Assembly: GCA_965368975.1 (NCBI GenBank)
Contig: CBDUPA010000010.1
Location: 64,001-128,000, forward strand
Reading direction: 5' to 3'
Source: an uncultured bacterium
Lineage (GTDB): Bacteria > Acidobacteriota > Thermoanaerobaculia > Multivoradales > JAHZIX01
Length of the DNA: 64,000 nucleotides
Each line of letters opens with the position of its first letter. The first letter of the stretch is position 1. The notes under the pieces are model-generated. The model worked only from the letters and a program-made list of their open reading frames with translations, searched no databases and had not been told where the DNA came from. A program made the position numbers and the translations under genes. Shown piece after piece: positions 42,914 to 57,363 of this stretch.

Positions 42914-42958
42914 GCCACTCCGGTTCTGAAGGCGGCCTTCGTCGCCCAGGTGCCGTCC

Positions 42959-44701
42959 ATGCTGCGACTGAAGATCGAACCCCCGTACCGGCCGCCCTTC
43001 CTCGTCGAGATCCAGCAACCTCGAGTGACCTTCGGCCGCTCGCCGAACAGCGATATCTGCCTCGAAGACCAGTTCGCGTCGCGCACCCACGCCGAGTTGC
43101 GCGTCGATGGCGACACCTGCTGGATCACCGATTTCGATAGCGCCAACGGCACCTTTCTCGAAGGTCGCCGGCTACAGGGCACCGCCCGCCTGAAGCCAGG
43201 GAACCAGATTCAGATCGGCAGCACGACGATCGTCTTCCAGCCATCGAGCCGCCTGACCAGCACCGGCGAGCTGACCAGCGCCGGTAGCCGCACTGGTAGC
43301 CACACTGGCGACGACTCCGACGCGCCCTTCCGGCCGCAGACGCTGATCGCACGCCGCGGCACCGGCACCGGCACGCACCAGACGCGCATCACGTCAGTGA
43401 TCCGGACGCTCCAGCAGGTCTCGCCGCAACCGCAGGTCGACCGGCCGGAACAGACACAGATGCTGGCCGTGATGAGCAAGGTGGGCATTGCGCTGCTCAC
43501 CTCGTCGTCGCTCGACGAAGTCTTGCAGCAGCTGACCGAGCTGATCTTCGAAGGCATTCCGGCCGACCGCGCCTTCTTCCTGCTGCGCGAAGACGACGGC
43601 CACCTGGTGTGCAAGGCCGCCAGCTATCGTGACGAAAACGCAGACTCGACGCCGGCCGACACTGAAGTGCGGCTGAGCAGCTCGATCCGCGAGCTGGTCA
43701 TGGGACAGGGCCAGTCCGTCCTGACCTCGGACGCCCAGGACGATGACCGCTTCCGCGACCGCGAATCGATCGTGCTCAGCGGTGTACGCTCGGTCATGGC
43801 GGTACCGCTAGCCGTCGACGGCGACCAGCTGGGCATGATCTACGTCGACAGCCCGATGAACGTCAACGTCTTCACCGACGACGACCTACACCTGTTGACC
43901 ACTATCGCCAGCGTCGCCGCCATCCGGGTCGAGAACGCTCTGCTGCTGGAGCAGCGGATCGAGAACGAGCGCATCAAGGAGCAGCTCTACAAGGCCTACA
44001 ACATCCAGACGCGATTGCTGCCGACACGACCACCACGTGTCCCGGGCTACCGCCTGAACGGCACCAGCATGCCCTGCTTCGAGGTCGGCGGCGACTACTT
44101 CGACTTCATCCCGCAACCCAACGGGCGCATCCTGCTGGCGCTCGGCGACGTTTCGGGCAAAGGCATGGACGCGGCGATCCTGATGTCCAGCTTGCATGCA
44201 GCCATCCGTGTGCAGGCCGACGCCGGCATGCCTCTGGGTGAACTGACCAACCGCGTCAATCGCTATCTGTGCCAGACGATCCCGATGAATCGCTTCATCA
44301 CCGCCTTCTTGAGCCAGCTGGACCCTGAGACTCACCAGCTGATCTACACCAACTCGGGGCACAATCCGGCCCTGCTGGCACGCGCTACCGGCGAGGTCGA
44401 GTGGCTGCAACCGGACGGTGCTCCGCTCGGCATCTGCGACGATATCTCCTCGATCCCGGAGCGCAAGCTGCACATTCATGTCGGAGACGTGCTGGTGATC
44501 TACAGCGATGGCCTGACCGAGTCGGTCGATCCGGACGATCGCGAGTTCGGCGAGGAGCGGCTGGCGGACCTGGTGTGTCAGAACCACCATCTCGAGCCCG
44601 ACGAGCTACACAAGCTGATCGACCAAAGTCTGACCGAGTTCCTGGGTCAAGAACCGTATCTCGACGACGTCACCTTGGTCGTGCTCAAACGCCTTCGCTG
44701 A
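42959..44701 (+). CDS. FHA-GAF-PP2C (SpoIIE) phosphatase
   Basis: FHA (GRS, SRTHA, SANGT), GAF (VRSVMAVPL), VGGDYFD, GDVSGKG, YSDG, DDVT. Confidence 0.9.
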   Translation: MLRLKIEPPYRPPFLVEIQQPRVTFGRSPNSDICLEDQFASRTHAELRVDGDTCWITDFDSANGTFLEGRRLQGTARLKPGNQIQIGSTTIVFQPSSRLTSTGELTSAGSRTGSHTGDDSDAPFRPQTLIARRGTGTGTHQTRITSVIRTLQQVSPQPQVDRPEQTQMLAVMSKVGIALLTSSSLDEVLQQLTELIFEGIPADRAFFLLREDDGHLVCKAASYRDENADSTPADTEVRLSSSIRELVMGQGQSVLTSDAQDDDRFRDRESIVLSGVRSVMAVPLAVDGDQLGMIYVDSPMNVNVFTDDDLHLLTTIASVAAIRVENALLLEQRIENERIKEQLYKAYNIQTRLLPTRPPRVPGYRLNGTSMPCFEVGGDYFDFIPQPNGRILLALGDVSGKGMDAAILMSSLHAAIRVQADAGMPLGELTNRVNRYLCQTIPMNRFITAFLSQLDPETHQLIYTNSGHNPALLARATGEVEWLQPDGAPLGICDDISSIPERKLHIHVGDVLVIYSDGLTESVDPDDREFGEERLADLVCQNHHLEPDELHKLIDQSLTEFLGQEPYLDDVTLVVLKRLR

Positions 44702-46532: not shown

Positions 46533-48158
<1,626 letters not shown>

Positions 48159-48165
48159 GGGACCG

Positions 48166-49029
48166 TCAGTTGCCCTCGGGCCGCTGACCGCGCAGCCGGG
48201 TGAGCAGAAGGTGGTTGGTGAAGGGCATTGGCAGGAGGAAGTCGGCTCCCGCTTCGAGGCAGCGGAAGGCACCCTGCAACGCCTCGACCGTGGAAACGAC
48301 CAGAATGCGCAGCTGCGGCTCGCCCAGGGCACGCGCTTGCCGGATCAGGGCCTCGGCGTCGCAGTCGGGACTGCGATGATCGACCAGGAGCGCGTACAGG
48401 TCACCGCGGGCCACCGCGGCCAAGACCTCGTTGCTATCGACAGCGCGATGTGCCTCGAAACCGATCTCGCCCAGCTGCCGCTCGATACCCGCGCACAGCT
48501 CGGCGTCGTGGACGGCGACCCAAGCAACCTCGCGATGCATACCGGGCTCTGGACCGCTCACGGGAGCACTACTCACGGGAGCACTGCTCACGGGAACACT
48601 GGCGGCGGCCGGAGTCGGAGCCGGTGCTCGACCGCGTGGAGGAGCCGGCGATGCCTCTGCAGCCTTGCGCCGCAGCAAGTCCTCGACCTTGCGCAGCAGC
48701 CGCCGCAGGTCGACCGGCTTGGTGTCATAGTCGTCGCAACCAGCCTGCAAGGCTTTCTCGGCATCGCCGGACATGGCGTGTGCGGACAGACCGAGGATGG
48801 GAATGCCGCGTGTGCTGCTGTTGGCCTTGAGGATGCGTGTGGCCTCGTAGCCGTCCATCACAGGCAGGCTGATGTCCATCAGGATGAGATCGGGGAGCTC
48901 CGCCTTGGCCTTCTCGATGCTCTCCGCGCCGTCTACCGCGACACTGATCTCGTGCCCACGGCGCGCCAGCCGGCGCTGCAGCATGTCCCGGTTCATCTCA
49001 TTGTCTTCGACGAGCAAAATTCTGGCCAT
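48166..49029 (-). CDS. DivK-like receiver plus Pro-rich linker plus degenerate second receiver
   Basis: ARILLVEDN, LILMDISLP, DTKP; the second domain lacks the acidic pair and conserved Lys (AVHDA, LLVDH, LPMP). Confidence 0.82.
   Translation of the reverse strand: MARILLVEDNEMNRDMLQRRLARRGHEISVAVDGAESIEKAKAELPDLILMDISLPVMDGYEATRILKANSSTRGIPILGLSAHAMSGDAEKALQAGCDDYDTKPVDLRRLLRKVEDLLRRKAAEASPAPPRGRAPAPTPAAASVPVSSAPVSSAPVSGPEPGMHREVAWVAVHDAELCAGIERQLGEIGFEAHRAVDSNEVLAAVARGDLYALLVDHRSPDCDAEALIRQARALGEPQLRILVVSTVEALQGAFRCLEAGADFLLPMPFTNHLLLTRLRGQRPEGN
48556..48600 (-). repeat. 3x15-bp in-frame repeat encoding a (S)APVS linker
   Basis: gctcacgggagcact actcacgggagcact gctcacgggaacact (+ strand). 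Confidence 0.8.
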
Positions 49030-49167
49030 AGGAGCTTTCGTCAAGACTGCCAGCAGTTTCCGTGCCACAGCCGATTGGGCAGTATAGCACCCAGCTCGGC
49101 ACACAGCGGCACGCGTCCGCGCGCGTTTTTGCACCGGTAGACGTCGGACGGCAAGCGCTGGTGCGGC

Positions 49168-50262
49168 TCAGGGTGGAGGTGTCGCTGGCGTGCCGCCTGG
49201 TGGGCTCTGTCCGGGCAGTGCCGGCTCGGGCAAGGGCACCGACGGCAGCGTCACCGTGACGCCGTACTCCAGAGCGCCAGCCGCTGGTGGCGGCGGCAGG
49301 GCCAGCGGCGGCAGGGCCAGCGACAGATCGCTCGGCAGGGCGATCTCGAGCGCCCGTGGTGCCTGCTGCCGGTTGGGCCACAAGCTGCCCGGATCGCGCA
49401 CCGGGTTGAGACCTTCGATCCCCAGCTCCCGCAGGGCTCCGGCGGCCGTAGAGGGTAGCTCGAGTACGGTCTGGGCCAGCGCCTGGCGGCGCCCCGGATC
49501 GAGGCTGGGACCGACCGACAACACCGGCAGGGACAGCGGCGGGCTGGTGTACACGGTGCGCAGGTCGTCACCGAGGTGGGCAGCGAGCAGCGGGTTGTAC
49601 TCGGCGATCAAGGCCGCGTCGGCCTGCTGGAAGAGCACATTGGCCGTGGCACTGAAGTCGTCTTCCTCGTGCACCAGCTGGAAGCGATCCGCCGGATCCA
49701 GGCGGCCGGCGAAGATCTCTTGCTGCAAGAAGCGGTGGAGGCTGGAGCCGGCCGTCTCGACGACCACGACCGAAGCACCGCTCAGGTCGGCGGGCTCCTG
49801 CAATTCGGCACGCTCGGCACGTACGACCAGCACTCGCCGGTAGACCTCCTCGCCGTTGCGCACAAAACGATGTACCGGTTGCAGCTCGATGCCTGGAGGT
49901 AGGTCGAGGAGAAAGCTGACCTCGCTGAGAACCAGCGCGACACGATCACCGTTGGCTTCCAGGTAGTCGTGCGCGTCCTGCCAGCGGCGGAAGATCTCCA
50001 CGCGCAGATCGAGGGCCGCTCCCGTGCCCAAGGCCTGTCCCAGCTCGGTCAGGGCCGCGGCAGCACGGGCTGCATTCTCGATCGGTACCGCCGGCAGGTG
50101 CACCAGCAACACGTCAGCTTCCCGTTCTTGCGCTGCAGCAACTGCCGGCTGCAACATGCAGCCGACCAGCACACAGACGCACAGCCTCCAGAGGTCCGGC
50201 ACGTTCGCGGGCAAGAAACTCAGCCCCCTCAAGGCAGGAACCTCTGCAGCGTCTCGATCCAT
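49168..50262 (-). CDS. PhnD/SsuA-like periplasmic solute-binding protein (no ABC partners nearby)
   Basis: Signal peptide, YRRVLVVRA, PADLSG, ANVLFQQADAALI, VYTSPPLSLP; Pro-rich C-terminus; overlaps the TPR gene. Confidence 0.65.
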   Translation of the reverse strand: MDRDAAEVPALRGLSFLPANVPDLWRLCVCVLVGCMLQPAVAAAQEREADVLLVHLPAVPIENAARAAAALTELGQALGTGAALDLRVEIFRRWQDAHDYLEANGDRVALVLSEVSFLLDLPPGIELQPVHRFVRNGEEVYRRVLVVRAERAELQEPADLSGASVVVVETAGSSLHRFLQQEIFAGRLDPADRFQLVHEEDDFSATANVLFQQADAALIAEYNPLLAAHLGDDLRTVYTSPPLSLPVLSVGPSLDPGRRQALAQTVLELPSTAAGALRELGIEGLNPVRDPGSLWPNRQQAPRALEIALPSDLSLALPPLALPPPPAAGALEYGVTVTLPSVPLPEPALPGQSPPGGTPATPPP

Positions 50263-52847
50263 CCCGTGACTTCTCCTCGGCGCCCGCCGCTCGAAACGTA
50301 GGCTCGGTAGAGTTCCAGCGCGGCAGCGCCGTCACCACTCTGCTCACGCACGATCCCCAAGTTCAAGGTTGCCGCCGTCAGGCGCGGCGCGGCACGCTGC
50401 GCCGCTTCGAAGCTACGCCCCGCGGCAGCCGCATCACCCGCACGTTGAAGGGCAATACCGAGGTTGTTGTGCGCCACCGGTAGCAAGGCTGCATCGAGAT
50501 CTCCCGCGACCGCGGCGGCGAGGTCGGACCGCCCGTCGCCACCGGCCAGCAGGCGCGCCGTGCCGCGCACCAGGTGGGCCCGAGCTTCGTCGGTGCGGCT
50601 CAGCGGCAGGCGCAGGGCCGCATCGGCCAGCTGGCCAGCTTGGCGAGCATCGGAGTCGAGAGCCGCCAGAGCTTGTGCCGTGCGCACCATGCCCAAGACC
50701 TGGGAGCGTCGGGCACACAGCTGAACACGGGCGTCGACGCTCAGGCTGAGCAGCAGTTGCACACGCTCACTGCCGGCACCACGCGGGGCGACAGGATTCT
50801 CGTCACGCGCCGGTTCGCAGGCACTCCTCATGGCTTGCAGCCGTGTCACCGCCGCCGCCAGGTCACCGGAATGAGCCAGAATCTCGGCCAGGGCCAGATG
50901 CGGACCGGGCCAGCCCGGGAAACGCTCGACGGCCATCTCCAGGGCGGTGCGCGCCGGTGCTTCCGGCCCGGCAGCAGACCCGGCGGGTCGGGAGAGCCAG
51001 AGCAACTGACCGAGGTTGGCAGCGCCCAACGCTGCCAGATCCAGCGAGGCCACATCCTGCACCGAGCTCCCGGCACCTTGCCCCTGAAGACTTTCCAAGG
51101 TGCGCAGCGCACGTTCCGTCTCGCCGCTCAAGGCATCGAGCACAGCGCTGGCCAGCAACGCCGGCCGATAGTCGCCGCCTTGACGCAGGAGCTGTGCAAG
51201 CTGCTGGCGGGCGGGCTCCACTTCGCCGTCGCGGGCCAGCAGCAAGGCATAGGTAGTGATCAGAGCCTGCCGGGTCGACGCTTCCGCAGCGTCCAGCTCG
51301 GGAAGCAGTTCGACCAGCTGTGTCCGTGCTTCGGCGCTGCGCTGCTGTTGCAACAGCACCAGCACCAGATTGAGGCGCACCGGCAGCCATTCCGGACGCG
51401 CCGTCGCCGAGCCACCGCTCTGCAGCACGCGTCGATAGACAGCTTCTTCAGCGCGCGGGTTCGCCTGCAAGCGCGCCAGCGACGCCAACTCCAGTGCCGC
51501 GGCGGGCTCGGAGGGAGCCAGTTCGAAGGCGTGCTCAATCAGCGGGCGCGCTTCCTGTGGACGCCCGTCCACGCGCAGTTGCCGGCCCAGTGCCAGCAAC
51601 GCTGGCAGGTCGTCCGGCCGCGCGGCGAGGAGTTCGCGCCAGGCCGGCTCGGCCTCGGCAGGGCGACCTCGAGCGGCGTGCACTTCGGCCAGCAAGCGGT
51701 ACGCTGAGACCCGATCGTTACCGTCCAGGTAGCTCAATCCGGCCTGCGCCTGGCGCACGGCTTCGTCCGGCTGCCCCTGCCGGCGTGCAACTCGCGCCAG
51801 GTGCAAGTAGGCCAGCGGCAGAGCCGGATCGAGTTCCAGCGCCCGTCGGTAGGTGCTGGCGGCCGCATCGCCGTCCCCCAGCTCATAGTAGGCGTAGCCC
51901 AGGTGGTACTGAGCGCTGGCATCCGCCGGATCGAGGCGCACCGCCTTCGAATAGGCGGTCACCGCGTCCCGCCACTGCCGACGCTGGAAGTGGCTGGCCC
52001 CCAGGTTGCGATATGCACGCGCGTGGACCGGGTCGACCGCGTCTCCACCGGCGAGAGCCTGGTCGATCGGCGCCAGCGCCACACGATAGGCTCGCTCGGC
52101 TTCGTCGTAGCGTCCCAACTCCACCAGCACCGCACCCAGATTGTAGTGCGCGCGCAGGAAGTCCTCGTCGCGGTCGATAGCTCGCTCGTAGGCCGCGACG
52201 GCATCGTCCAGGCGGCCCTGCTCGTGGTAGGCGTTGCCCAGGGCGTAGAGCACACGCGGCTCGCGCGGCGCCAACTCGCTGGCCCGCAGCAGCGCCTCCA
52301 GGGCCTCCGCACCACGCCCCAGGCGCCGCAGCACCGCGCCCTGGAACAAGTGGAGTTCCGCATCGCGCGGGTGCGACACCAGGGCCCGCTCGACGTGCCC
52401 GAGCGCTTCCTGCGGCTGATCCTGGTCGAGGCTCAGTACCGCCGCGTTGTAGCGCAGACCGCGGTCGTCGGGCTCTTGCTGCAAGCCAGCGTTGAAGACG
52501 GCCAGCGCCTCTGGCTTCTGGCCCTGCTGGAACAGCAGCGCGCCCAGACCCGCGTACGACTCCACGACTCGCGGCGCCAGCTCGATCGCCTCCCGGTAGG
52601 CGGCCTCGGCGTCGCCCGGCCGTCCTCGCTCCTGCGCACGCGTCGCCCGATCCAGCAGTTCGAGAACCACCTCGGGGATGTCGTCCTGCGCCAGGATGGG
52701 CCCAGCAGTCAGGACCGACAAGGGCAAACCAGCCAGCAGCAGCCACAGGACTGCCAGCTGGCTGGCTAGTTCACTTCCTAGCCCCCTAGCGAACCGGCGA
52801 CGGGGCGACAGGAGCGCCGGCCTAGAACTGAACTTCGACGGATCCAT
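50229..52847 (-). CDS. Large exported TPR-repeat protein
   Basis: Signal peptide and more than 10 TPRs (YALGNAY, HYNLG, YRNLG, YHLGYAY, HNNLG). Confidence 0.88.
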   Translation of the reverse strand: MDPSKFSSRPALLSPRRRFARGLGSELASQLAVLWLLLAGLPLSVLTAGPILAQDDIPEVVLELLDRATRAQERGRPGDAEAAYREAIELAPRVVESYAGLGALLFQQGQKPEALAVFNAGLQQEPDDRGLRYNAAVLSLDQDQPQEALGHVERALVSHPRDAELHLFQGAVLRRLGRGAEALEALLRASELAPREPRVLYALGNAYHEQGRLDDAVAAYERAIDRDEDFLRAHYNLGAVLVELGRYDEAERAYRVALAPIDQALAGGDAVDPVHARAYRNLGASHFQRRQWRDAVTAYSKAVRLDPADASAQYHLGYAYYELGDGDAAASTYRRALELDPALPLAYLHLARVARRQGQPDEAVRQAQAGLSYLDGNDRVSAYRLLAEVHAARGRPAEAEPAWRELLAARPDDLPALLALGRQLRVDGRPQEARPLIEHAFELAPSEPAAALELASLARLQANPRAEEAVYRRVLQSGGSATARPEWLPVRLNLVLVLLQQQRSAEARTQLVELLPELDAAEASTRQALITTYALLLARDGEVEPARQQLAQLLRQGGDYRPALLASAVLDALSGETERALRTLESLQGQGAGSSVQDVASLDLAALGAANLGQLLWLSRPAGSAAGPEAPARTALEMAVERFPGWPGPHLALAEILAHSGDLAAAVTRLQAMRSACEPARDENPVAPRGAGSERVQLLLSLSVDARVQLCARRSQVLGMVRTAQALAALDSDARQAGQLADAALRLPLSRTDEARAHLVRGTARLLAGGDGRSDLAAAVAGDLDAALLPVAHNNLGIALQRAGDAAAAGRSFEAAQRAAPRLTAATLNLGIVREQSGDGAAALELYRAYVSSGGRRGEVTGWIETLQRFLP

Positions 52848-54960
52848 AGAACGTCGAGCCGGGCAACTGCATGTCGATCGGCAGGAAGGTTTCCCTGATC
52901 TCTTCGTCGAGCAGGTTCTTGCCGTAGACCGACAGGCGCAGACCGCGCGCAGCCCGGCCGAGGCTGATGGGGAGATCCCAAGACAGGCGTAGATTCACCA
53001 AGGTGTAAGCCTCCAGCACTGCCGGGGCGCGGCCGCCACTGGCGAAGTTCCAGAAGCTGGGCCCCAGCCGCTCGTCGCGCCAGTGTGCTTCGAGAGCGCC
53101 GCTGAAACCGTTGAAGGGTCCAAAGTAGGCGGCCAGGTTGAGCTTGTTCTCGGGCGCGTAGACGAACTCGATCGGACGACCGTCTGGCCCCAGGGCTCCG
53201 GTGTCGCGATCCGCCTCCTGGTAGCTCCAGTTGACCAGCGCCGTGAACTGATCCGACGGTCGCCAGCGCAGCTCCAGCTCGCCGCCCCGCAGCTCAGCGT
53301 CGTCCGGGTGGTTGACGCTCTGCAAGCGCGTCGGACCACCTCCCTGGAAGGAGAGCACGATGAAGTTGCGCACCTCGGATCGGAACAGGTCGAGCTTGGC
53401 AGAGAACTCTGGATTGAAACGGTGTTCGAGCCCCAGGTCGAAGGTGCGGATCTCCTCGGGCTGCAGTCCCGGGTTGGGCTGGAAGTCTTGGATCGTGTTG
53501 AACACCGGACCGAACTGCAGCCCCAGGAAGGCGGCGTCCTGGTACAGCTCACTGAAGTTGGGGAAGCGGAACGCGGTGGAATAGCCACCGCGCAGCACTG
53601 TGCGCTCGCCCGGGTTGTAGACCAGCGCGATGCGGGGCGACACCTCACTGTCGAAGAGGTCGTTGTCGCCATCGTAGCGAGCCCCCAGGATCAGCTGCAG
53701 ACGGTCGTCGACCAGCGAAATCTGGTCCTGCACATAGACCGCCACCTTGCTGTAGTCGAACACTAGCTCGGAACCGCTGGCGGCCGCCGCGGCCGGCGAC
53801 AGCAGTTCGTCGGTGTGATCGCCGGTGTCGACGCGCCGCGCTTCGACGCCGACCAGCAGATTGTGTGCCTCTCCGGCCTTGAACGCCAAGCGGAAGTCAC
53901 CGATCCACTGGCTGCCGTGGTCGATGGTGCCGGTGAAGTCCGAGTTCTGGCCCGCGGCGTGGCACGACGAACACCGCGAACCGCTGCGTTGGGCGTAGGA
54001 AACGTCACCACTGAAGCTGAGATCCGGGCTCCACTCGTGGCTGAACTTGAGCGCCAGGATGTCGACTTCCTGACTGATCTCAGGAGCGCTGGCGAAGCGG
54101 CTACCGGGAATGAAGCCGGGAGAGTCAAAACCTTCGAGGTCGTCCTCGTGGCGGTAGTAGGACAGCTCCACATCCCCTACCCGAGTCTCGAAATTGCCCT
54201 TGATGTAGACGTCCGAGCCCTCCACTTCCGAATCGGCGTCTTCGGCCCAGAAGTTGGGCGGTAGCTGGCCACTGAACAGACGACCGGAGATCAGGATCGA
54301 GCCATTGCCCAGGCTCTTGCCGTAGGTCAGGCCCAGCGAACGGCTAAGCAGATCGCCGCTGTAGAGTTCCAGCTTGCCGCCTTCCAGGTCCTCACCCGAC
54401 AGGGTGACGATGTTGATTACGCCCCAATAGGCGTTCTCACCGTACAGCGACGACCCCGGACCGCGAACGATTTCCACTCGCTTGATGTTCTGCAGCATGA
54501 AGAAGTCGAAGCCCGGATGCTGCGGGAAGCCACCCTTGTTCCAAGAGTTGTAGGGCACGCCGTCGATCAGCAGCAGCACGCGGCTGGTGAAGGGGTTCTG
54601 ACCGAAGCCGCGGATGTCGATCGTCTGAACCATCGGGTTCCAGCGCACATCGACACCGGCCACCAAGCGCAGCAACTCGGGAATGGTACGCGAACCGGAC
54701 TCACGAATCTGCCGCGCGCTGACCACGCTGACCGACCCGGGCACCTTGGACAGTGGCTGCTCGGTCTTGGTTGCGGCCTGGATGGTGAACTCCTCTTCAC
54801 CAAAGAGGCTGACCTCGCCGAGCGTCGCGGTGCCACCCTGCGCCTTGGCGGACACCGGCGTCCACAATGCCAACAGGGCGGCGACCACAGCGGCGGCCGG
54901 CAAGCAGGGACACGAGCCCGCGCGACGCGGACTCCAGAGATTCGAAGACTTGACTGTCAT
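52822..54960 (-). CDS. TonB-dependent outer-membrane receptor with a CxxCH loop
   Basis: Plug (ATKTEQPLSKVPGSVSVV, LLLIDGVP, VEIVRGPGSSLYG, GVINIVT), barrel strands, NLLDE, terminal Phe; RCSSCH at 53959-53973. Confidence 0.92.
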   Translation of the reverse strand: MTVKSSNLWSPRRAGSCPCLPAAAVVAALLALWTPVSAKAQGGTATLGEVSLFGEEEFTIQAATKTEQPLSKVPGSVSVVSARQIRESGSRTIPELLRLVAGVDVRWNPMVQTIDIRGFGQNPFTSRVLLLIDGVPYNSWNKGGFPQHPGFDFFMLQNIKRVEIVRGPGSSLYGENAYWGVINIVTLSGEDLEGGKLELYSGDLLSRSLGLTYGKSLGNGSILISGRLFSGQLPPNFWAEDADSEVEGSDVYIKGNFETRVGDVELSYYRHEDDLEGFDSPGFIPGSRFASAPEISQEVDILALKFSHEWSPDLSFSGDVSYAQRSGSRCSSCHAAGQNSDFTGTIDHGSQWIGDFRLAFKAGEAHNLLVGVEARRVDTGDHTDELLSPAAAAASGSELVFDYSKVAVYVQDQISLVDDRLQLILGARYDGDNDLFDSEVSPRIALVYNPGERTVLRGGYSTAFRFPNFSELYQDAAFLGLQFGPVFNTIQDFQPNPGLQPEEIRTFDLGLEHRFNPEFSAKLDLFRSEVRNFIVLSFQGGGPTRLQSVNHPDDAELRGGELELRWRPSDQFTALVNWSYQEADRDTGALGPDGRPIEFVYAPENKLNLAAYFGPFNGFSGALEAHWRDERLGPSFWNFASGGRAPAVLEAYTLVNLRLSWDLPISLGRAARGLRLSVYGKNLLDEEIRETFLPIDMQLPGSTFYGSVEVQF

Positions 54961-55014: not shown

Positions 55015-57363
<2,349 letters not shown>

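Follow-up and report, generated by a model that had tools for sequence, protein, structure and literature searches.

Is the CxxCH motif of a predicted outer-membrane receptor a heme c attachment site, a metal site or a disulfide? The question is raised by a 64,000-nucleotide stretch of DNA from an uncultured bacterium of the Acidobacteriota (contig CBDUPA010000010.1, positions 64,001 to 128,000; hereafter, the window). Its minus-strand open reading frame (ORF) 52822..54960, P0001, encodes a TonB-dependent receptor of 712 amino acids (aa), and the translation includes YAQRSGSRCSSCHAAGQNSDFTGTIDHGSQWIGDFRLAFK. TonB-dependent transporters are importers and, in the FecA type, signal transducers; to our knowledge, no TonB-dependent transporter with a covalent redox cofactor is known. 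The original prediction, made from the DNA alone, had taken the motif for a lone CxxCH in a loop of the receptor, with heme c, a metal or a disulfide switch as its possible function and the adjacent kinase as the recipient of the signal. Judged by sequence comparison, P0001 belongs to a distinct, so far undescribed, multi-phylum subfamily of TonB-dependent receptors, which are marked by R-x-G-x-x-C-x-x-C-H in the predicted extracellular beta7-beta8 loop and by an invariant Met at the tip of a plug hairpin. The best single explanation of these residues, to which we give about an even chance, is a heme c that would be bound covalently to the beta7-beta8 loop, reach the plug apex through His334/Met110 ligation and feed a YfiBNR-like relay from the outer membrane.

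Receptor gene and conservation of the CxxCH motif

P0001 was matched by the Pfam families Plug (PF07715; aa 70-181, 84.3 bits, cut-off 23.9) and TonB_dep_Rec_b-barrel (PF00593; aa 266-683, 184.5 bits, cut-off 27). Its leader, read from the sequence, is a hydrophobic signal-like segment that ends in VSA-KAQ, and the stretch GEVxLFGEEExxIQAATKTE (A1 consensus), which is conserved before the plug, may be TonB-box-like. C330 and C333 are the sole Cys of the mature protein, as had been stated from the translation; the remaining two, C17 and C19, both lie in the hydrophobic leader. For shuffled mature P0001 (2 Cys and 10 His in 672 aa), the probability of a CxxCH was 4.4e-5.

Homologues were collected with a word-indexed search of 5.8 billion proteins, which gave 678 matches at E<=1e-10, of which the 120 best were taken. 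C-x-x-C-H stands at the same place in 119/119 homologues among the matches listed (48-71% identity), and Cys beyond leader and motif were found only in P0040, P0060, P0120 and the kinase portion of P0054, a fusion call. A locus scan with one genome per prokaryotic species yielded 67 loci, 67/67 of them with CxxCH (in L072, where a frameshift splits the gene, on the second frame). The carrier records comprise Acidobacteriota/Thermoanaerobaculia, Verrucomicrobia, SAR324, Gemmatimonadota, Schekmanbacteria, a metagenome-assembled genome (MAG) labeled KSB1 'Deferribacteres', several gammaproteobacterial families, Magnetococcales and Myxococcaceae. Cultured strains exist for two of the carriers, namely L051 (Pseudomaricurvus alkylphenolicus KCTC 32386) and L059 (Marinicella meishanensis). 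When 1.84 billion cluster representatives were searched with a profile, the best 150 matches were taken, and 45 of these have CxxCH at the homologous loop; the others are generic receptors or fragments that do not reach the loop, plus one sequence, P0147, which is considered below. CxxCH was absent from all 82 full-length generic receptors of this best-150 list. The 7.1-Mb genome to which the window belongs has one family member, and its other 9 receptor-like ORFs have no CxxCH.

C, C and H are fixed across 150 aligned sequences, and among the listed homologues, loci and cluster representatives the inner pair varies freely (AA, AG, AS, SS, GA, GS, GG, ST, IA, EG, GN, GF, AV, QV and AD). A free inner pair with fixed C, C and H is the pattern of heme c sites. 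Conservation of the three residues in homologues, which had been proposed as a check, was thus observed in every listed homologue, every locus and 150/150 aligned sequences, distant branches included. The motif of the original prediction is therefore real, but 'lone' understated it, since it marks an entire subfamily of receptors.

When P0156, a far member, was used as query, 12 relatives were found at E<=1e-30, one of them named from Marinicella meishanensis. In three MAG records (L024, L045 and L072) the receptor gene is split across frames, which frameshifts or errors of assembly may explain; the break in L045 comes directly after the motif.

Co-conserved residues

The alignment of 150 sequences consisted of a core of 118 (the query and 117/119 homologues, P0054 and P0065 having been dropped for length), 18 close and 14 far members. 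Among the residue kinds screened (H, M, C, Y, W, K and R), the positions invariant in 150/150 sequences were C330, C333, H334 and M110. The Met was present in 118/118 core, 18/18 close and 14/14 far members, including far members without H348, and a Met occupies this column in 3/82 generic TonB receptors. Mature P0001 contains 3 Met in total, M110 among them. It occupies the tip (N108-P109-M110) of a plug hairpin formed by strands 103-107 and 112-116, directly before the IDIRGFG box. We take the plug loop before the IRG strand to be the substrate-contacting apex, as in FhuA (Arg81) and BtuB, which would place M110 in the outer ligand pocket, where the barrel loops could reach it.

Conservation of other residues was more restricted. 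H348 was found in 118/118 core, 16/18 close and 0/14 far members; R325, invariant in the A1 alignment, was found in 118/118, 16/18 and 10/14, respectively. H271 (115/118 core) and H382 (109/118 core) lie in or beside extracellular-type connections.

Predicted fold and loop position

An AlphaFold2 model of P0001 was built on 46 homologues (mean predicted local distance difference test score, pLDDT, 86.4; predicted template modeling score, pTM, 0.86). The motif lies between strands 314-328 and 345-360, in agreement with its original placement between the strands containing FSGDVSYAQR and WIGDFRLAF; the mean pLDDT of the loop block is ~90, and DSSP assigned a short helix to 331-334. Counted from the first barrel strand (194-202), short connections of 2, 4, 2, 5, 4 and 5 aa alternate with long ones of 4, 14, 17, 16, 23, 8 and 11 aa. 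From this DSSP string the motif loop is predicted to be the fourth long connection, beta7-beta8, of the extracellular type, so that structure prediction, the check proposed for loop position, points to an extracellular-type loop by strand/connection parity. DSSP gave ~24 strand elements instead of 22, some of which are loop hairpins; in the model, the parity argument is independent of the strand count.

The model was matched by Foldseek to FepA, Cir, PfeA and BtuB (E 3e-35 to 1e-33, TM up to 0.72/0.89). No close homologue was found among solved structures, and the motif region falls outside the two printed PDB alignments. In the ESM Atlas, P0001 matched generic TonB-receptor clusters only.

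Nature of the conserved site

If the site binds heme c, the receptor would be a mono-heme c-type cytochrome whose unfolded precursor crosses the periplasm. The Ccm system would join heme to C330 and C333, with H334 as proximal iron ligand. After assembly of the barrel, M110 at the plug apex would become the distal ligand, with H348 as an alternative in the core clade, and the heme would fill the usual ligand pocket and tether the barrel loop to the plug. We infer heme attachment and Met ligation; heme c was rated best because the invariant C, C and H with a free inner pair, the lack of other Cys, the co-invariant Met and the Ccm genes are all predictions of a His/Met-ligated heme c. An exported unfolded polypeptide with CxxCH is a Ccm substrate, and P0001 has its motif behind a signal-like segment, as expected of a c-type cytochrome. 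The window genome gave three PF01578 matches (125.1, 97.5 and 77.3 bits). A 776-aa CcmF-like ORF adjoins a CcmE match (55.5 bits), a separate 239-aa ORF is CcmC-like, and ResB stayed below its cut-off in this genome. PF01578 was detected in 11/11 genomes tested, namely the window's own and 10 other family carriers.

Several points weigh against heme c. The PF01578 test is weak, because 9/14 control genomes also have PF01578, and in Pfam and NCBIfam P0001 matched no cytochrome c family, only TonB-receptor families. The proximity of M110 and H334, like the extracellular placement of M110 at the plug apex, is extrapolated from the anatomy of FhuA and BtuB. The same four residues, the Cys, Cys and His of the loop and the Met of the plug, would equally form a soft-metal site. 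P0147, a 384-aa fragment from a metagenome contig, reads G-A-S-C-H at the site and is the only family sequence found that lacks the first Cys; it may be either a single-thioether variant or a sequencing error. A single heme in the outer vestibule would by itself probably be unable to move electrons across the membrane. Among 48 well-flanked loci (defined below), 14 have neither a sensor nor an adaptor neighbor, and most of these belong to one Thermoanaerobaculia subclade with CAGCH.

A role as an electron conduit across the outer membrane, in the manner of Cyc2, was considered and is unlikely, as a lone heme in the outer vestibule of a plugged barrel would lie too far from the periplasm. Two heme-related neighbors were recorded at other loci: the gene immediately upstream of the CxxCH receptor in a Magnetococcales MAG (L063:6266-7702), in the same orientation, encodes a cytochrome c that has three cbb3-type heme domains, and in Marinicella meishanensis a protein of the SOUL heme-binding family is encoded ~3 kb upstream of the receptor (L059:4147-4908).

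The strongest competitor, which we regard as a good deal less probable than heme c, is a soft-metal site in which C330, C333 and H334 of the loop and M110 of the plug (with H348 in the core clade) would bind, for example, Cu(I)/Cu(II); the receptor would then import or sense the metal, and a periplasmic adaptor and the CHASE8 sensor would report it. M110 is compatible with a His/Met-ligated heme c and with a Cys/His/Met metal site like that of OprC, and H271 and H382 would supply further conserved His. Every member has exactly CxxCH, however, rather than CxxxM or HxM, and the plug has no Cys. A surface-exposed CxxC dithiol is also expected to be oxidized by DsbA. Two loci have heavy-metal-type genes close to the receptor (YbjQ_1 in L022; CusB/HlyD and OEP in L030), but no recurring copper-handling genes were found in the 16 Pfam-scanned loci, and OprC was not among the PDB profile matches at E<=1e-10 or the best 50 Foldseek matches listed. 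The precedent for such a site is the copper site of OprC, which joins Cys143/Met147 of the plug to His323/Met325 of the barrel and traps the metal, according to the available part of PMC8610252.

Less probable again, and in our judgment improbable, is a C330-C333 disulfide that would stiffen the loop as a structural element or redox switch without a covalent cofactor, leaving H334, with H348 or M110, to contact a substrate, for instance a metal chelate or a free tetrapyrrole. Disulfides are common between paired Cys in the extracellular loops of TonB receptors (FhuA, FepA), the helical turn at 331-334 of the AlphaFold2 model is of the kind found in CxxC redox motifs, and the best partial family matches of P0001 are heme/hemoglobin receptors (TIGR01785; ShuA, ChuA and PhuR in the PDB). 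The TIGR01785 score is far under the cut-off, however, at 174.6 vs 316.85 bits; members from L043, L051 and L059 scored 147-168 bits, and the PDB profile matches of P0001, which also include Cir, do not amount to membership in any of these groups. Heme receptors carry a His between the FRFP and NPGL boxes, and between these boxes as read from the sequence of P0001 there is none. A plain disulfide also leaves unexplained why the residue right after the second Cys is an invariant His (150 sequences) and why the inner pair varies freely. P0147, if real, keeps C-H without the first Cys, so a disulfide would be impossible there. A chance or lineage-specific motif without function has a next to negligible probability: by an estimate from composition, a single CxxCH could arise somewhere in a genome of this size, but the invariance of the motif across phyla rules it out as a product of chance. 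Heme c, a metal site and a disulfide switch are not separable from the sequence data.

Gene neighborhood and proposed relay

Table 1. Features of the receptor locus, in positions of the window.
Feature	Position	Strand	Basis or remark
TonB-dependent receptor gene P0001	52822..54960	minus	Signal-peptide-like N-terminus, conserved TonB-box-like N-terminal stretch, plug, barrel
CxxCH codons (C330-S-S-C333-H334)	53959..53973	minus	Reverse complement TGT TCG TCG TGC CAC; predicted beta7-beta8 extracellular-type loop
M110 codon	54631..54633	minus	Plug-hairpin tip; candidate distal heme ligand or metal ligand
H348 (DHG) codon	53917..53919	minus	Second conserved His, 14 residues past the motif
R325 codon	53986..53988	minus	R of the conserved R-x-G-x-x-C stretch leading into the motif
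Hybrid sensor histidine kinase: CHASE8 periplasmic domain, HAMP, HisKA, HATPase_c, two receivers	55015..57363	minus	Pfam; directly upstream of the receptor
Exported TPR-repeat protein, 872 aa (P0002)	50229..52847	minus	Pfam TPR families
Periplasmic binding protein, phosphonate-binding (PF12974) type	49168..50262	minus	Pfam 65.1 bits, cut-off 27
Response regulator, two receiver domains	48166..49134	minus	Pfam; conserved in the cluster of close relatives (synteny)
Receiver domain-Ser/Thr protein kinase fusion	46533..48332	minus	Pfam; conserved near the cluster in close relatives (synteny)

The receptor gene is embedded in a cluster of signaling genes (Table 1) whose order is kept in close relatives. 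The CHASE8 domain of the window kinase scored 46.9 bits in Pfam (cut-off 27), and the kinase passes the NCBIfam model NF053592, 'sensor histidine kinase, YfiR-like protein-associated' (210.5 bits, cut-off 194). No YfiR-like (DUF4154) protein was found among the window ORFs Pfam-scanned between 41249 and 63378; the PF12974-type periplasmic binding protein (PBP) stands in that place. The stop region of the receptor gene overlaps the annotated start of the TPR gene by 26 nucleotides (52822-52847), and the end of the TPR gene overlaps the start of the PBP gene by 34 (50229-50262), so translational coupling is suggested if the annotated starts are right. The TPR protein and PBP form a single ORF of ~950-1000 aa in L021, L036, L038, L040, L041 and L072.

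Gene context was counted with local profiles at strict thresholds in the 48/67 loci where the receptor gene is flanked by 3 kb or more on each side, the other 19/67 having too little flank. Sensor or adaptor neighbors were found in 34/48 of these loci: a CHASE8 sensor and a PBP in 18, a CHASE8 sensor and a YfiR-like protein in 12, and a PBP only in 4. A PF12974-type PBP was detected in 24/67 loci at E<=1e-4. By Pfam, the receptor is followed by a DUF4154/YfiR-like protein and then a CHASE8 protein in L043, L051, L054 and L059, and a CHASE8 protein is present in L049 and L061. The order in Gammaproteobacteria and the KSB1 MAG is receptor, YfiR-like protein and then either a CHASE8 GGDEF-EAL protein or a CHASE8 kinase. 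In two cases (L014:2712-6509 and P0054; 1266 and 1202 aa) the CHASE8 kinase and the CxxCH receptor were read as one open frame, either a true fusion or a lost stop, which underlines the tight linkage of the two genes.

Complex prediction was run on the periplasmic part of the window kinase (aa 36-157) and the PBP (aa 44-330). With small alignments of 12 and 13 rows, the pair reached an ipSAE of 0.69 in the median run (runs 0.65, 0.69 and 0.70), and the best of 3 controls reached 0.01; in the benchmark, the ipSAE mark was reached by 116/157 solved complexes and 2/215 mismatched pairs. The runs share at least 97% of contacts, the pLDDT of the partners is at least 84, and the predicted interface takes in the invariant D67 of the kinase and the invariant R92 and D96 of the PBP. 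The models support binding of the window PBP to the CHASE8 domain of the kinase. The link from receptor to adjacent kinase, as originally suggested, thus gains support from conserved gene order and from this predicted complex.

For heme c as the sensing element, we infer the nature of the signal and the steps of the relay as follows. A change at the heme, either of redox state or through displacement of the Met by an outside ligand, would alter the plug, and the change would reach the periplasmic face as it does upon ligand binding in ordinary TonB-dependent transporters. A periplasmic adaptor (the TPR and PBP-type proteins here, a YfiR-like protein in other lineages) would relay it to the CHASE8 sensor, which is a hybrid histidine kinase here and a GGDEF-EAL protein elsewhere. 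Such a relay would parallel YfiB-YfiR-YfiN, the receptor taking the position of YfiB.

Further observations concern the neighboring genes. Within the TPR protein P0002, aa 306-413 matched the CcmH/CycH apocytochrome-chaperone TPR domain PF23914 (62.7 bits, cut-off 42). A dedicated role as apocytochrome chaperone was considered for P0002 on this basis and set aside, because generic TPR families far outscore PF23914 on this protein; the match is possibly meaningless. More signaling genes lie beside the cluster, namely an FHA-GAF-SpoIIE phosphatase at 42950-44701 and the receiver-Ser/Thr kinase fusion of Table 1. A search of the whole window with Rfam gave no riboswitch or other RNA that names a ligand, and the signal in a promoter/terminator scan was no higher than in shuffles.

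Novelty and implications

Full-text literature searches, mostly outside subscription journals, turned up no account of TonB-dependent receptors in which CxxCH is conserved; in the parts of 10.1101/695007 and PMC3403914 that were returned, the matched terms were unrelated to CxxCH TonB receptors. We propose, tentatively and with somewhat less than even confidence, that these receptors are the first family of TonB-dependent transporters that are c-type cytochromes, with a heme c joined to the loop by thioether bonds and ligated by a plug Met, and that they act as surface sensors of redox state or small ligands in the outer tier of a widespread relay.

If this is true, heme ligation would be mechanically coupled to plug movement, and a heme anchored to both barrel and plug would constitute a new mode of sensing the outside at the outer membrane. 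The relay, from receptor through a YfiR-like or PBP adaptor to a CHASE8 kinase or cyclic di-GMP (c-di-GMP) enzyme, would span Acidobacteriota to Gammaproteobacteria. It would also supply a physical input for many uncharacterized receptor/YfiR-like/CHASE8 triads that control two-component and c-di-GMP signaling. Should the residues form a metal site instead, they would add to OprC a second known type of metal site that spans plug and barrel, with another ligand set and a built-in signaling output.

Comparison with known systems

OprC of Pseudomonas aeruginosa, a copper transporter of the OprC/NosA type, is described, in the available part of PMC8610252, as having CxxxM in the plug, HxM in the barrel wall and a methionine track. 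Like the site proposed here, it is a site of Cys, Met and His that bridges plug and barrel in a TonB-dependent transporter, and binding changes the Ton box region (same part of PMC8610252). The two differ in that the plug of P0001 gives a Met only and the CxxCH lies on a barrel loop, the OprC motifs being compared by description. No special sequence or fold relation of OprC to P0001 was seen in the PDB profile and Foldseek matches listed, and no YfiR-like or CHASE8 partners are described in that part of PMC8610252.

Cyc2, an Fe(II) oxidase, consists of an N-terminal cytochrome with a single CXXCH fused to a predicted 16-strand porin, and has AXPXFAR[Q/K][T/Y] 5 residues upstream of the motif (excerpt of PMC8406198); production of a Cyc2 in the outer membrane of E. 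coli is reported (excerpt of PMC13692758). Cyc2 resembles the proposed receptor as an outer-membrane barrel with a single heme c CxxCH, and shows that Ccm-type maturation can be combined with barrel assembly (excerpt of PMC8406198). It differs in that the motif of P0001 stands at aa 330 of a plugged, TonB-dependent barrel, where AXPXFAR[Q/K][T/Y] is absent (YAQRSGSRC). The GSU2204 family of CXXCH-containing outer-membrane barrels of the MtrB/PioB type (NF041027), named in an excerpt of PMC13188914 and known here by name, is likewise a barrel family defined by CXXCH. It is another barrel family, with neither plug nor TonB dependence, and P0001 did not match it at E<=0.01.

In YfiB-YfiR-YfiN, a periplasmic repressor of a CHASE8-type enzyme is sequestered at the outer membrane, as described in the available parts of PMC4887326 and PMC4655355. 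The proposed relay shares with this system an outer-membrane component, a periplasmic protein (there the repressor) and an inner-membrane sensor (same parts of PMC4887326 and PMC4655355), and the kinase of L043 has a YfiN/DgcN-type N-terminal similarity (NF007423, 67.4 bits, aa 13-247). YfiB, however, is an OmpA/Pal-like lipoprotein without a heme motif, in contrast to the TonB-dependent barrel here, and the present system has a hybrid histidine kinase as its output, together with partners of the receiver and Ser/Thr kinase kinds.

The closest layout is that of an NCBIfam trio, which consists of NF053590 (TOL_0244 TonB-dependent receptor), NF053591 (TOL_0243 YfiR-like) and NF053592 (YfiR-like-associated sensor kinase). 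Two L043 proteins, the YfiR-like one (152.4 bits, cut-off 125) and the kinase (210.2 bits, cut-off 194), pass the models of this trio. The CxxCH receptors scored 122-152 bits against NF053590 (P0001 138.7), with a cut-off of 645, and true TOL_0244 members from gammaproteobacterial genomes (L073, L074, L075 and L084) have no Cys at all, so the CxxCH receptors are a separate family in the same slot. One genome (G035) has two copies of TOL_0244-family receptors ~1 kb apart. In the window, the TPR protein and the PF12974-type PBP replace the YfiR-like protein; the layout is otherwise the same, with a TonB receptor, a periplasmic protein (YfiR-like in the trio) and a CHASE8-type sensor.

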